Below, one piece after another: positions 34,395 through 39,815 of a stretch of DNA of 64,000 bases. Origin of the DNA: Escherichia phage JN02; sequence record MT782071.1. One strand, written 5' to 3'. Under the pieces are notes generated by a model. It was not told the origin of the DNA, did no database searches, and saw only the letters and a program-made list of their open reading frames with translations. The first letter of the stretch is position 1. Each line of letters starts with the position of its first letter. The position numbers and the translations under genes are program-made.

Positions 34395-34620
34395 CTCGGT
34401 CCCATGATTTGGCCATTAATTCGGACATAAATTCTTCAATGCGCGTTTCTTTAGATGGACTTTCACTATTAGAGACCGCAAGTTTGTAATCTGCAATAGG
34501 ACAGAACATATCAAGGTCCATATTAAGGTCGTCTTTGATTTTTTCTTCTGACACATCTTTATCGTATGTGTACAGATAGCTATCACATGATTCTGATTTA
34601 ATGTAAATTGCTATACTCAT
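34384..34620 (-). CDS. Hypothetical protein
   Basis: Track ORF 34384..34635; ATG at 34620 overlaps the upstream stop (ATGA). Confidence 0.5.
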   Translation of the reverse strand: MSIAIYIKSESCDSYLYTYDKDVSEEKIKDDLNMDLDMFCPIADYKLAVSNSESPSKETRIEEFMSELMAKSWDRDDE

Positions 34621-35108
34621 CTCAAATTCCTGCATTCGGTAATAAAACGTTCAACTTCATTATTCTTGGCTTTTATCTTGTCTTTACGTTCCTGTAAACT
34701 ACTTTTAACAAGATTAATAATGATGCCTATAGTACCTCCACCAATAATACCACCAACAACACTTATGATACTAGATGCTAATAAGATAGCAATAATATCA
34801 ACAAAACCGAAAGAACTCACCTTAGTACTGAAAAACCATACCGACGGTACAAATATAATCCATCCTGTTATCCATTGGCACTTATTGAAAAACTTTTCAA
34901 GCTCAGCTTGAGTTGTTCGTATTACTTCATCGATAGGTTGATATCCATTAATGTATCTGTTCACGATAATACCTGCTGGCTGGTCGATTTTAAATTCTTG
35001 ACAAATATGTTTCACTAAGTAGGATGGACATCCTGTCCAATCTACTGAATAGTATGAAATACCTTCATTGCCATCGTCTATATTAGACCAATATGTTTTG
35101 TTAATCAT
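34617..35108 (-). CDS. Membrane protein, FI[KT]ECR C-terminal family
   Basis: 163 aa; TM-like segments (WIIFVPSVWFF; IIAILLASSIISVVGGIIGGGTIGIIINLV); C-terminus NEVERFITECRNLR. Confidence 0.6.
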   Translation of the reverse strand: MINKTYWSNIDDGNEGISYYSVDWTGCPSYLVKHICQEFKIDQPAGIIVNRYINGYQPIDEVIRTTQAELEKFFNKCQWITGWIIFVPSVWFFSTKVSSFGFVDIIAILLASSIISVVGGIIGGGTIGIIINLVKSSLQERKDKIKAKNNEVERFITECRNLR

Positions 35109-35794
35109 TACCAGCCTTCCATAGGGAATTCCAGATAAACTTGAGCATTGACACGAATTTCATTGGTAATCTTTTTAACTCGGTCTGTATTACGAGATAC
35201 ACGTCCGAACCAACGCCATCCATTACTAATTGCACGAGAACCAGTGTGCCATGTTTGCCAATCAAACTGAAGAAGAGTACGGTCCGGAGCTTCCCATTTC
35301 TCTAGTTCACCTTTTTCAATTTTTTCTAGGACTTCTTTGTGCCACTGGCGATAGATAAGTTCGCCATCAGGAATCTGACTGAACTCTGCAGTTCCTGTTG
35401 CAAAATGAGTAGGACACACATCAGCGTTAACAAGACCAAGAATATGTTCAGACAAATAGCGAGGATTGTCATAATCAGGTTGTCCTGCAGTAATAAAGTG
35501 TTGACCAACTGGAATATCAGGGCGTGGTACGTCATCATGGTGATATCCAGGAATAGCAGGATACCAACCAGGCATCAGCATGTGGACTCGTGAATCAAAT
35601 ACAACCTGGTCAGTGTTCCAATCATCTGGCAAGTTCATGATGAAGCTACGAGTAATTGGGCCGCCATTATTAAAAGCAAAATTCAAATCGCAGTTAAAGA
35701 ACATAGGCTCGTTTTTAATCCGATCGTTTTTAATCGCATGAGCAAAACCACCTACTGCACGAGCTTGACTATTAAACACTTTAGAACTATTCAT
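35108..35794 (-). CDS. Hypothetical protein (228 aa)
   Basis: Track ORF; His/Asp-rich segment (PGYHHDDVPRPD) and several Trp; no fold assigned. Confidence 0.65.
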   Translation of the reverse strand: MNSSKVFNSQARAVGGFAHAIKNDRIKNEPMFFNCDLNFAFNNGGPITRSFIMNLPDDWNTDQVVFDSRVHMLMPGWYPAIPGYHHDDVPRPDIPVGQHFITAGQPDYDNPRYLSEHILGLVNADVCPTHFATGTAEFSQIPDGELIYRQWHKEVLEKIEKGELEKWEAPDRTLLQFDWQTWHTGSRAISNGWRWFGRVSRNTDRVKKITNEIRVNAQVYLEFPMEGW

Positions 35795-35795
35795 A

Positions 35796-36101
35796 TTATT
35801 TTCCTCGACATTCTTTAATGAAATTTTCTAGATTGGTAGATTCAATAGCTTTTTTACGAGCTTCCGCGTGTTCTTCTTCGGACAATTTACGTTTATAATT
35901 GACCCAGACATTATGGTCGAAACCAGTCGTGGCATATAATAACAATGCTCCAACGAATAGCAAAAACGGCGATAAGAATACAAAACCAGGAACACCATCC
36001 ATATCGTAAGCCTTTTGTAATACTGCAACAGAAAGGGTTGCGTAAAAAGGCGATGCAAGTATTGTTAAAAGACCGATTCGATTGGTTTCTGTTAATTTCA
36101 T
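35796..36101 (-). CDS. Membrane protein, FIKECR C-terminal family
   Basis: 101 aa; two TM-like segments; C-terminus TNLENFIKECRGK. Confidence 0.6.
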   Translation of the reverse strand: MKLTETNRIGLLTILASPFYATLSVAVLQKAYDMDGVPGFVFLSPFLLFVGALLLYATTGFDHNVWVNYKRKLSEEEHAEARKKAIESTNLENFIKECRGK

Positions 36102-36157
36102 AATATTCTCCTCAAGTTGATAGGACTACTATAACATGGCCCTATCAGTTTGTACAC

Positions 36158-36358
36158 TTATTTTGACATTTCTTCGATGTCACGACGATACCCATCACGA
36201 ACTTCACGAAGAGCTTCAAGGCCACACATAGGCTCGATACCAGTAATGTGAACTTGATTAATCTGATACTCTACATCTTCTAACTGAGCGAAAACATAAC
36301 GACGTTCTGCTGCACAACCAGGTTTAGCTTTACCGAAACGTTTATTCAAAGTAGTCAT
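36158..36358 (-). CDS. Hypothetical protein
   Basis: Track ORF 36158..36376; ATG at 36358 preceded by GGAGAT. Confidence 0.55.
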   Translation of the reverse strand: MTTLNKRFGKAKPGCAAERRYVFAQLEDVEYQINQVHITGIEPMCGLEALREVRDGYRRDIEEMSK

Positions 36359-36438
36359 TTTTATATCTCCATTCACTCATTTGTTTTGATAGGTCTATAG
36401 TATCAACAACTACAGACCTTGTAAACTGTTTTGTGAAA

Positions 36439-37923: not shown

Positions 37924-37932
37924 ATGATTTCC

Positions 37933-38205
37933 TTAGCAAGTGTGAGAAGATGCAATCCAACCACCAGTTTCGAGGCTCAGGTTGTAGTCGTATTGGTAAA
38001 CGTCGGCCCATTCAGCATAGCCGTTTTTTGTACAACGTTCAAGATCGGCTTTAAGCTGTCCGGGTGAATGATAAGTTCCACCCATACCATAAGCTGGATA
38101 CAAGTCGAATGTTGTGTTTTGTTTATCAGCGATTTCTTTGGCAGCCTCAATAGCTGCATAGATTTTTGCTACAGCTTCAGCCAGTTCGGTTTGTTCTTTA
38201 GACAT
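37933..38205 (-). CDS. Small protein, C-terminal ...SSxxC family (90 aa)
   Basis: Ends GWIASSHTC; shares a helical N-terminal region and YGMGGTYHSPG core with the next ORF. Confidence 0.6.
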   Translation of the reverse strand: MSKEQTELAEAVAKIYAAIEAAKEIADKQNTTFDLYPAYGMGGTYHSPGQLKADLERCTKNGYAEWADVYQYDYNLSLETGGWIASSHTC

Positions 38206-38214
38206 AATGATTCC

Positions 38215-38520
38215 TTAGCACAAAGCAGAAGACGAAACCCAAGCACCTTCAGTAATAACGTAACCATTACCTTCACGCTTAACATCGCCACCATTATTTT
38301 CAATTTCATTTTTCATCCACTGGGATACGATTTCACCCTTAGGATAATAAGTACGACCGCTACCATAATCACCTACAGAAAATGATACGGCATATTGGTC
38401 TGCGATCTTTGTTGCTTCTTCTTCGATACGTTCAGCTTGATTCAGAAGTTTATAAATTGCATCTGAAGCGGATTTGGCATCGTTAAACTCTGGTACTTTA
38501 ATTTCAATAATCTTACTCAT
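38215..38520 (-). CDS. Small protein, C-terminal ...SSxxC family (101 aa)
   Basis: Ends AWVSSSALC; DYGSGRTYYPKG core. Confidence 0.6.
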   Translation of the reverse strand: MSKIIEIKVPEFNDAKSASDAIYKLLNQAERIEEEATKIADQYAVSFSVGDYGSGRTYYPKGEIVSQWMKNEIENNGGDVKREGNGYVITEGAWVSSSALC

Positions 38521-38876
38521 TTTCTACATTCCTTAATAAAGTTTTCGATTGTTTCATTTTCACGTTTAGCTAGAAGTTCATTATAACTAACCATTTGAGA
38601 AGCGTAAACCTTTTTATTTTTCTTGTTATGGTTTATAAAATCGTAGTAAAAATAGACTACAGTACAAAATGATGCGATGGATGCAAAGGCTTGGGTATAC
38701 CGTAAGTCCTGCCATTGGTCTGTGAATCCATCGGTGTTCCCTATAAATCCTAACACAACGCCGTCAATAAGAAATCCAACTAATCCAAAGGCAAATCCCA
38801 TGCCAATACTCATAATAAAAATTAGAATGTTCTCACCAAGAGAAGGCCGTACGGTTAAGAGTTGAGGCTTTTGCAT
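38517..38876 (-). CDS. Membrane protein, FIKECR C-terminal family
   Basis: 119 aa; TM-like segments; C-terminus ETIENFIKECRK; ATG with AAGGAAA SD. Confidence 0.6.
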   Translation of the reverse strand: MQKPQLLTVRPSLGENILIFIMSIGMGFAFGLVGFLIDGVVLGFIGNTDGFTDQWQDLRYTQAFASIASFCTVVYFYYDFINHNKKNKKVYASQMVSYNELLAKRENETIENFIKECRK

Positions 38877-39250
38877 CTTATTTCCTTAACGAATTCCATA
38901 GCTTCTTCGTATTCATACTTTTTAACAGCTTCATTATACTGAGCTTGGGCTTTTGCGCACTGAACTTTCCATTCTCTTAATCGGGCTCTGTGATGACGTC
39001 CTTGGTACCAATATCCTACCCAATTAATAGGCATTAATAAAAACGGTACAATAAGTGGTGCGACGAACATTAATGAAAATGTTGCGTCAGACGATATAAC
39101 TTCACTAGAATCTAAAACAGCTCCTATAATCATAAAGATTAAAAATGCTAAAGCTAAAATAGGGCCAAATAGTACTTCGTTTGGGATTAATTTACGCTTG
39201 TATTCATATGCCCAGGGCTTACTTGGCATGTACAGGGTTGGCTTTGACAT
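38855..39250 (-). CDS. Membrane protein with FVKEIRC C-terminal region
   Basis: Track ORF 38855..39280; probable start at the ATG at 39250; TM-like segments; C-terminus EEAMEFVKEIRCKSLNS. Confidence 0.5.
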   Translation of the reverse strand: MSKPTLYMPSKPWAYEYKRKLIPNEVLFGPILALAFLIFMIIGAVLDSSEVISSDATFSLMFVAPLIVPFLLMPINWVGYWYQGRHHRARLREWKVQCAKAQAQYNEAVKKYEYEEAMEFVKEIRCKSLNS

Positions 39251-39815
39251 ATTCTCTACATTCCATAATAAATTGCTCAAGGATTAAATTGTTAGTGAAA
39301 TTAGGACTAACAACCATAGTTTCATAAAGCGCATCAATAGCACTTAAAGCATCAACTCTTTTAAGCAAAGGCTTGCCTTCATACATAGTTTCAGAATCGA
39401 TGATTAACGTAAAGTAATATTTTTTATTATCGACTAGAACTTCTGTATCGATATAAAACATATTAGACCTCAGAAGCTTATCTCTAAAACCATAATAATC
39501 TTCAGAGCGTTCGCTGATATATTCCAATTCAGTGTTTAAACAACAAACAGACCACGTAGGAGCAACGAAATCAGTGAATCTAATATCATGGTCTGCAACT
39601 AGTTTAGCAATAGCTCCGATATCATGAATCATAATACCTGGGGCTAATAAAGATTTTCGGTTATTTGCATATTCAGTTGTCTCATAAGAAGACGACCAGT
39701 ACCATTTACGTCCAGTTGCAACATATCGTAATGAATCAACTAAAGACGTAGGTGGATTTACCTTATTTCGGAACTCTTCGAACATTGAGTCAATATCATT
39801 ATTTTGGTTTCGCAT
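39219..39815 (-). CDS. Hypothetical protein (198 aa) with FIMECR-containing C-terminus
   Basis: Track ORF 39219..39836; ATG at 39815 with AAGGAG SD; C-terminus LILEQFIMECREYVKANPVHAK. Confidence 0.6.
   Translation of the reverse strand: MRNQNNDIDSMFEEFRNKVNPPTSLVDSLRYVATGRKWYWSSSYETTEYANNRKSLLAPGIMIHDIGAIAKLVADHDIRFTDFVAPTWSVCCLNTELEYISERSEDYYGFRDKLLRSNMFYIDTEVLVDNKKYYFTLIIDSETMYEGKPLLKRVDALSAIDALYETMVVSPNFTNNLILEQFIMECREYVKANPVHAK

Follow-up and report, generated by a model that had tools for sequence, protein, structure and literature searches.

Why should a run of neighbouring phage genes, whose products are otherwise so different, end in the same short peptide? The question is raised by the genes that follow e.6 in a 64,000-nucleotide stretch of Escherichia phage JN02 (sequence record MT782071.1; this whole stretch is referred to as the window), where an earlier inspection of the sequence alone, hereafter the original prediction, saw a dispersed family of early membrane proteins sharing a C-terminal motif E-x-F-I-x-E-C-R. 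T4 is the best-studied virulent phage, yet its genes e.2 to e.6 have no assigned function, and the analysis described here points to one selected C-terminal peptide common to four consecutive T4 open reading frames (ORFs) and to their relatives in phages of hosts ranging from Escherichia to Aeromonas. Because this peptide is confined to genes located behind e.6, a block of "hypothetical proteins" becomes a single testable unit.

In a six-frame translation of the window, E.FI.ECR is found at exactly four sites, and it is found at none in 100 shuffled sequences; the shorter string FI.ECR has a shuffle mean of 0.01. The four sites are on the minus strand, within 5.2 kb, and stand 1-11 codons ahead of a stop codon. 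They were located by regular expression as ERFITECR (34629..34652), ENFIKECR (35805..35828 and 38523..38546) and EQFIMECR (39255..39278), and a loose pattern adds a degenerate copy, FVKEIR, at 38876..38893 on the same strand. The five ORFs concerned, called A, B, C, D and E below, were all confirmed on the minus strand, and the five tails read ..NNEVERFITECRNLR, ..STNLENFIKECRGK, ..ENETIENFIKECRK, ..LILEQFIMECREYVKANPVHAK and ..EEAMEFVKEIRCKSLNS, each followed by the stop codon. When the five proteins are compared with one another by BLASTP, the aligned part is limited to the last 9-27 residues. The motif had been said to stand just before the stop in each case; this applies to the four copies and the degenerate FVKEIRC, with the reservation that the copy in D lies 11 codons upstream of the stop, because e.5 (ORF D) overlaps e.4.

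The window is Mosigvirus (RB69-like, T4-type) DNA, the 6.2-kb segment around the tail-bearing genes being 96-99% identical to Mosigvirus phages such as NHEP29, JS09, ATK47 and APCEc01. From 33.4 to 41 kb every gene is on the minus strand, and the order of transcription is e.6, e.5, e.4, e.3, eight further ORFs, e.2, a 78-amino-acid (aa) ORF, nudE and e (lysozyme). ORF A (34617..35108, 163 aa, tail ..VERFITECRNLR) matches the e.2 family (phrog_2203, E = 1.3e-54). Its N-terminal 58 aa are 43-45% identical to annotated e.2, it shares a BLAST cluster with T6 e.2 after tail trimming, and it sits immediately upstream of the nudE region, in the e.2 position. ORF C (38517..38876, 119 aa, tail ..IENFIKECRK) matches the e.3 family (phrog_2330, E = 2.8e-49), with 37-39% identity to Tequatrovirus e.3 over 100% of the length (tblastn) and a position between e.4 and e.2. 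ORF E (38855..39250, 131 aa, phrog_2604), in the place of e.4, has the degenerate tail ..AMEFVKEIRCKSLNS, in which Ile takes the place of Cys and a Cys comes two residues later. ORF D (39219..39815, 198 aa, phrog_2607, motif ..LEQFIMECREYVKANPVHAK) is 47% identical to the Tequatrovirus e.5 protein; e.5 and e.4 form an overlapping pair directly downstream of e.6, the start of e.4 lying inside GAA-TAT-G just past the D motif. The annotation of ATK47, tblastn, clustering and the T4 annotation agree on C, E and D as e.3, e.4 and e.5. Sequence comparison identifies A, C, E and D as the T4 orthologues e.2, e.3, e.4 and e.5, and B (35796..36101, 101 aa, phrog_9798, tail ..LENFIKECRGK) is a Mosigvirus-only extra, which forms 7 clusters only, each at least 76% identical, in Mosigvirus-like phages. 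The four orthologues share with their T4 counterparts order, strand and tails, downstream of e.6 and upstream of nudE and e. The arrangement differs from that of T4 in that an eight-ORF block separates e.3 from e.2 and a fifth carrier, B, is added.

In T4, e.2 to e.4 are annotated as "predicted membrane protein" and e.2 to e.5 are uncharacterised early-region ORFs. Hydropathy and the positive-inside rule describe B, C and E as hairpins of two transmembrane (TM) segments, N-in/C-in, with an acidic loop and two K/R-rich ends, so that their tails are expected to be cytoplasmic. For A, hydropathy gives a soluble N-terminal part of about 80 aa, then two hydrophobic stretches and a cytoplasmic tail; D has no TM segment. 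The TM segments first proposed for A, B, C and E are thus recovered, D being without, and a cytoplasmic tail is predicted for four of the five members, A, B, C and E, as small inner-membrane proteins. Pfam (local copy), PHROGs and NCBIfam give no function for the tail-bearing proteins of the window. Two functional labels in Shigella phage JK42 were discarded: "sulfurtransferase" on e.4 (locus L159, 4858..5232) has no Pfam or NCBIfam support, and the "msp4" note on e.5 (L159, 5222..5824) has no profile match; both seem to be annotation artefacts. Separately, homologues of e.5 are listed in the protein database under a precomputed Pfam family, PF26876.1.

How far does the tail reach? Since word-indexed protein searches with B, C and D yielded nothing beyond near-identical proteins from Mosigvirus or Tequatrovirus, homologues were gathered by tblastn on phage genomes, the well-conserved e.6 serving as anchor for the collection of loci (1,101 phage records). 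Regions were taken from T4, Gaprivervirus (SP18, CJ20), Marfavirus, Klebsiella phage Roth34, Karamvirus, Kanagawavirus, Roskildevirus, Pseudotevenvirus RB43 and Aeromonas phages 65.2 and avDM5. The e.5 family diverges too fast for single-sequence search: phmmer with e.5 against 1.84 billion representatives gave 2 matches only. A profile of 13 e.5-slot proteins had no match in the PDB.

In T6/T4, the tail is read in all four genes, as ..NNFITECRKLK in e.2, ..KEFV[SI]DCRKIK in e.3, ..MKFVKESRCKSQN in e.4 (FVKESRC) and ..EKFVKECREYVK.. in e.5 (FVKECREYVK), the first three running to the stop codon. It is kept by orthologues at 30-45% identity and is also present in SP18, CIP9, Marfa, Roth34, RZH, Cronus, RB43 and Aeromonas phages. 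Small ORFs downstream of e.6 carry the variants EEFIKHCREAVNG, NSFIKYCRGKHVS, ERFIEDCRK, EYFINNCRKARK, EEFITECRGKNEIQP, ENFISKCRIKND, QDFIKECRYEL.. and ELFVDYCRRTASKK. Two checks proposed in advance, the alignment of the motif in full-length homologues and the presence of the tail in other phage genomes, came out in its favour: the motif aligns in homologues at that level of identity, and many T4-type genera carry the core in 1-5 copies per genome. The core is F-[I/V]-x-x-C-[R/K], the Glu ahead of Cys not being universal, and the general consensus can be written hydrophobic-[D/E]-x-F-[I/V]-x-x-C-R-(K/R/N/G). A logo of 47 non-redundant tails has a hydrophobic residue at -3, an acidic one at -2 and a basic or small one at +6. 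In the library searched, no paper was found that contains the motif strings, deals with PF26876 or treats e.2 to e.6 together; the genes are known as hypothetical ORFs, and it appears that neither their common tail nor its restriction to the e.6 block has been described.

This confinement is marked, both along the proteins and along the genomes. Among 29 loci, F[IV]xxC[RK] is found in the last 36 aa of 74 ORFs and nowhere in 65,280 residues of protein bodies, with 1 to 25 residues between the motif and the true C-terminus. In 39 independent IMG/VR loci, 112/599 ORFs within 6 kb downstream of e.6 have the core, against 0/542 within 6 kb upstream (1-5 copies per genome, 72 distinct 10-mers); the Fisher p value of this contrast, 2e-34, is indicative only, since spurious ORFs are counted and the genomes are related, the zeros being unaffected. 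Gene e.6 heads the block in every locus and the next gene carries a tail in 22/23 loci, the exception being a frameshifted e.5 whose fragment still has the tail. A degenerate DNA pattern for [D/E]xFIKEC[R/S] found 89 stretches in IMG/VR; only Mosigvirus e.3, B and one 93-aa ORF have it at the C-terminus of a real ORF, the remaining stretches lying inside unrelated proteins or in tiny ORFs.

Several further resemblances were encountered. The 93-aa ORF just mentioned is in a 128-kb IMG/VR sequence (3300033549_000065; locus L060, 319..341); it ends ..YEGFIKECREERADER, the one case in the pattern scan of a FIKECR at a C-terminus that does not belong to a recognised Mosigvirus locus. Upstream of e.6 in the window, a 75-aa ORF (40836..41063, minus strand), frd.3-like in ATK47 and assigned to phrog_1764, ends ..AEFYVNLIKK; this could be a degenerate tail or chance, and it is the sole candidate upstream of e.6. 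The string ..RYVSLCRKHW.. in thymidine kinase (26467..27048) was rejected as a chance resemblance in a known enzyme. The T4 prohead protease has the consensus L/I-x-E; an I-x-E cleavage site in FIKE|C was also considered and set aside, the Glu not being conserved in other genera.

Is the peptide itself selected, or is it the by-product of a DNA or RNA signal at the gene junctions, such as a ribosome-binding site, a device for translational coupling or the boundary of a recombination cassette? The junctions do contain such signals. The next ATG follows the Arg codon by at most 14 nt in 39/53 distinct junctions, and the Arg codon is AGA or AGG in 27/38 junctions with the next ATG at most 14 nt away, against 4/13 when it is farther and 15% in the background. 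For the next gene, the Shine-Dalgarno sequence is supplied by Arg-Lys (AGGAAA) or Lys-Glu (AAGGAA). The sequence CGA GGA AAA TAA T ATG at the end of B serves at the same time as ribosome-binding site and start of the next ORF, and it coincides with a ribosome-binding-site and start consensus, CGAGGAAAATA[AT]TATGA, repeated three times in the region (repeat family D4); the motif copies of C and D share 20/22 nt (repeat family D3). At the F, I/V and C codons, however, the DNA follows background usage. In 45 distinct motif DNAs, with the same loci as background, Phe is encoded by TTT 25 times and TTC 20 times and Cys by TGT 24 times and TGC 21 times, as in the background, and Ile by ATT, ATC and ATA 17, 10 and 5 times, near background. 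B and C have the identical ENFIKECR, with 4/8 codons differing, all synonymously. The motif is still present where the next ATG is 16-149 nt away or past an intergenic spacer, and in orthologues the DNA and the distance to the next start change while the residues stay. Rfam has no family in the region.

Conservation of the protein leads to the same place. Every orthologous family shows stronger conservation of the tail than of the body (0.40-0.67 vs 0.22-0.44), and among 13 genus-level e.5-slot proteins, with a mean column identity of 21%, only the F, C and R columns of the tail are at least 90% conserved. Background codon use, synonymous differences between B and C, freedom of spacing and tail conservation together indicate that the peptide is under selection; as judged from these comparisons, selection acts on the tail peptide. 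The alternative that the original prediction had itself raised, a shared nucleotide element in place of protein-level conservation, is thus answered in favour of the protein: codon use for F, I/V and C is that of the background and the motif persists with varied spacing. As a cause of the motif, the nucleotide element is largely refuted for F-[I/V]-x-x-C and is kept only from the Arg codon onward, and we consider it highly improbable as an explanation of the peptide. On the same comparative grounds, the ribosome-binding site of the next gene shapes only the Arg codon and the residues after it, and this dual coding probably accounts for the variable basic residues that follow Cys-Arg. The junctions thereby offer a clear example of dual coding: only a few nucleotides separate the selected peptide from the ribosome-binding site of the next gene, and this site biases the choice of Arg codon as well as the last residues.

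If the peptide is selected, do its carriers descend from one gene, as the "paralogous expansion" of the original prediction implies? When tails are removed, BLAST splits the carriers into at least 20 clusters. With tails trimmed, hhalign relates e.3 to e.4 with a probability of 70% over 45 columns (94% with tails), and the only other related pair is formed by two e.5 subfamilies (e5a-e5b), all other pairs being below 1%; with tails, the aligned region of these other pairs consists of 10-17 tail columns only. e.3 and e.4 are moreover collinear, with an N-terminal K-P motif, two TM segments, a basic stretch and the tail, and they are probably true paralogues by these profile and order criteria. 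Deeper homology among the two-TM carriers may exist, the profiles being small. The carriers also include soluble proteins, namely the e.5 family (184-306 aa) and several ORFs of 95-131 aa in other genera. A tail found on soluble and on membrane bodies without detectable kinship is therefore best described as a modular tail on different bodies. Expansion by paralogy is thus probable for e.3 and e.4, and is not supported for the other pairs or for the soluble carriers.

A stronger form of the paralogy argument holds that the carriers are ancient tandem paralogues of one two-TM gene, whose bodies have diverged while the tail kept a private structural role, for example as a membrane-proximal helix or in self-association, with no external partner. 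It draws on the adjacency, collinearity and tail-independent relationship of e.3 and e.4, on the plan common to most carriers (short N-terminus, two TM segments, basic helix, tail) and on a weak match of B to the C-terminal part of the e.2 PHROG family (E = 0.003). Yet the tail is also carried by the soluble e.5 family and the short soluble ORFs, hhalign without tails finds nothing among e.2, B, e.5 and cluster 44, and a private role would not be expected to fix the same five residues across more than 20 unrelated bodies. Common descent with a private role is thus rather unlikely.

What, then, could the tail do? Its hydrophobic and Cys positions, L/I, F, I/V and C at -3, 0, +1 and +4, are spaced so as to fall on one face of a helix, and the logo has a hydrophobic stripe with an acidic N-side and a basic C-side. 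AlphaFold2 (AF2) places the e.5 tail in a terminal helix, with low confidence (predicted local distance difference test, pLDDT, 55.6, from a 4-sequence alignment); the quality of this model does not suffice for comparison of folds. In the reading that we favour, the tail would be a short C-terminal amphipathic helix, exposed in the cytoplasm, on unrelated bodies encoded directly downstream of e.6. This docking or assembly helix would gather e.5 and the variable membrane anchors on the cytoplasmic side of the inner membrane, either at one common partner or with one another. The tail probably docks its carriers to a common partner at that membrane; for the docking-helix reading as a whole, we put the probability at about 0.45.

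Short terminal helices of this type are known. The MIM motifs of ESCRT-III proteins, which bind MIT domains, are short C-terminal amphipathic helices with an acidic start and a basic end, and several proteins share them to dock on one partner. The phage tail, likewise predicted to form a terminal amphipathic helix, is acidic on its N-side, bears a hydrophobic stripe, ends with basic residues and is present on several co-expressed proteins. The two differ in sequence, F-[I/V]-x-x-C-R in the phages vs (D/E)xxLxxRLxxL(K/R) in MIM, and in their carriers, since the phage tail is on membrane proteins and not on the ESCRT-III-like protein; no candidate MIT-like partner was identified.

Who might the partner be? 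One speculative candidate, proposed by analogy, is e.6 itself (39865..40458, minus strand, 197 aa), which heads the block and is predicted to form a long helical hairpin. In a single-sequence AF2 model, the hairpin has pLDDT >90 over residues 31-130 and is followed by three short helices. Foldseek against the PDB gave Vipp1 for each of the ten best matches and CHMP1B after them; the best one (E = 6.6e-4) spans 206 columns with 18% identity. In BFVD a phage "PspA/IM30 family protein" appears only at rank 35. Sequence and profile comparisons are not significant, so that e.6 was rejected as a sequence-level PspA homologue: 13 e.6 orthologues have no Pfam PspA_IM30 or PspA/Vipp1 sequence match at E <= 1, an e.6 profile search of the PDB retrieves no PspA or Vipp1 chain at E <= 10, and hhalign of e.6 against PspA gives probabilities of 0.9% and 1.3%. 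A pattern-based scan of 185,579 bacterial genomes found no e.6 relatives. A PspA/Vipp1/ESCRT-III-like fold is thus tentatively proposed from the model, as a lead and not as a result.

In the systems of E. coli (PspA with PspB/PspC) and Bacillus (LiaH with LiaI), an effector of the ESCRT-III superfamily is accompanied by small membrane proteins from the same operon, which recruit or regulate it through cytoplasmic helices. The phage block has a similar appearance: the e.6 hairpin, with Vipp1/PspA as best Foldseek match, is followed in one transcription unit by predicted inner-membrane proteins with cytoplasmic C-terminal helices. If e.6 were the partner of the tails, the arrangement would resemble that of PspA with PspB/PspC or LiaH with LiaI. 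Carried further, the analogy would make the e.6-to-e.2 block a phage-borne Psp/ESCRT-III-like module for membrane maintenance or remodelling, in which e.6 would be the polymerising effector and the tails an adaptor code through which soluble e.5 and evolving, phage-specific two-TM anchors recruit or regulate e.6 at the inner membrane. Such a module might preserve membrane integrity during lysis inhibition or counter host abortive-infection effectors that attack membranes, and the invariant Cys might add an inter-subunit metal or redox site. This extended version we hold to be unlikely. Were the partner indeed a PspA-like e.6, the phages would encode their own system for membrane stress or remodelling, unusual in its modular adaptor code.

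Several observations weigh against the docking-helix reading. A plain hydrophobic face does not account for the preference for Cys, and the e.4 family uses I, V, S or M at this position. Since e.6 was the anchor by which most loci were collected, its link with the tails follows in part from the way the loci were chosen. Natural losses are found: a frameshift divides e.2 in the record of T4 GT7 (locus L019, 5947..6434), e.3 is cut to its last 30 codons in phage LF82-4 (L006, about 2991..3090) and e.5 is frameshifted in one IMG/VR genome (L009, 7636..8251), so that individual carriers appear to be dispensable. Finally, a profile of e.3/e.4 compared by hhalign with E. coli PspC gives 0.4%, and with PspB 5.9% over 7 columns. 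Without such similarity, the block would at most work like the Psp and Lia systems and would not be a member of them. From a practical point of view, a 10-15-residue tail peptide such as KRENETIENFIKECRK can be used as bait for a partner, with point mutations of F, I, C and R as controls.

The strict C-terminal position, together with the exposed helix and its basic end, would also suit a regulatory tag, either a degron that times the removal of early proteins or the site of an enzyme that modifies Cys or Arg, for instance by Arg ADP-ribosylation with T4-type Alt, ModA or ModB. T4 has Arg-specific ADP-ribosyltransferases. An invariant Cys-Arg pair would fit such a site, sorting and degradation tags are likewise found on unrelated bodies, and nudE, a Nudix hydrolase gene, is located just downstream, at the end of the same block. 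On the other hand, the tail has no likeness to a known degron class, C-terminal degrons do not usually lie at so variable a distance from the true C-terminus (1-25 residues), the Cys is missing from the e.4 family, and no enzyme is linked to the tail. Hence a tag of this kind appears quite unlikely.

A further reading, suggested in the original prediction, is that of superinfection-exclusion or host-takeover factors, of which the tail would be the effector end; location in the early region and inner-membrane topology speak for it. The PHROGs category of the e.2 family, "moron, auxiliary metabolic gene and host takeover", goes in this direction, its name being only "membrane protein", and so do the dispensability of the genes and their differing number from phage to phage. 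T4 Imm and Sp are comparable as small early inner-membrane proteins of T-even phages; they are not known to us to share a tail motif. In Pfam, PHROGs and NCBIfam, however, no match connects the window proteins to Imm, Sp or any other characterised exclusion or takeover family, soluble carriers exist, and no supporting experiment or paper was found in the literature. An effector role of this type is, in our opinion, very unlikely.

The docking helix thus being preferred, with the reservations given above, the organisation of the block in the window can be considered. In T4/T6, e.5-e.4-e.3-e.2 are contiguous, all four with the tail, and e.3 and e.2 abut. In the window, a 3.4-kb block of eight ORFs including B (35109..38516, minus strand), absent from T4/T6, occupies exactly the interval from the e.3 stop to the e.2 start. 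The carriers are "dispersed" in Mosigvirus because of this insertion; the word describes the window well and does not suit T4/T6. The claim that most carriers have their own early promoter could not be upheld: a promoter-like site stands directly upstream of B alone (36156..36128), and D, E and C are chained, as is the 228-aa ORF with A, by stop and start codons that overlap or abut. The site upstream of B, TGTACA-17-TATAGT (36128..36156, minus strand), is inside a 50-nt repeat. Between e.6 and e.5, a G+C-rich hairpin followed by a T-run (39839..39856, minus strand; -14.4 kcal/mol, z = -3.4) resembles a terminator or attenuator, and similar hairpins follow e.6 in T6 and SP18.

The 50-nt repeat (repeat family D1) is present at 36114..36163 and 37678..37727 (also at 36419..36432), with 82% identity. 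It contains an early-type promoter, with -35 GTTTACA/TGTACA and -10 TATAGT, and a stem-loop into which the -10 element partly extends. One copy is ahead of B and the other ahead of a 79-aa ORF (37424..37663). PeSL (promoter-early stem-loop) cassettes were reportedly proposed by Arbiol and colleagues in 2010 to mediate modular gene shuffling in the hyperplastic regions of T4-type phages. The repeat of the window is similar in that it flanks cassettes in the inserted block, including one that starts with B. Shuffling of this type would account for a possible insertion of B and its neighbours, and not for the peptide motif, whose DNA varies among copies.

Other members of the inserted block deserve mention. 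The 228-aa ORF between B and e.2 (35108..35794, minus strand, phrog_1843) is very strongly conserved across genera, its C-terminal NEIRVNAQVYLEFPMEGW being near-invariant in CIP9, Cronus, WSPA and IMG/VR loci; neither Pfam nor NCBIfam has a match for this ORF. A 318-aa ORF (36439..37395, minus strand) contains the Pfam domains DUF7277 and DUF7275; several genera keep it in this block, and T4 lacks it. A second tandem family of small ORFs (65-101 aa; phrog_899, phrog_4882) is represented at 38215..38520, 37933..38205 and 37726..37923, all on the minus strand, and ends G-x-W-[V/I]-[S/A]-S-S-x-x-C, the Cys being the very last residue. It counts 113 ORFs with 98 distinct sequences, at 0-5 copies per genome (also in loci L004, L020, L021 and L125-L157), and is located in the e.6-downstream block of most genera, not in T4-type Tequatrovirus. 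An internal W-x-S-S-S-Y-E of e.5 was considered as a link to this W-V-S-S-S-x-x-C family and dismissed, as it is present only in Mosigvirus and Tequatrovirus e.5. Finally, two tRNA genes (43128..43201 and 43208..43281, minus strand) lie upstream of the block, as in the T4 tRNA region.

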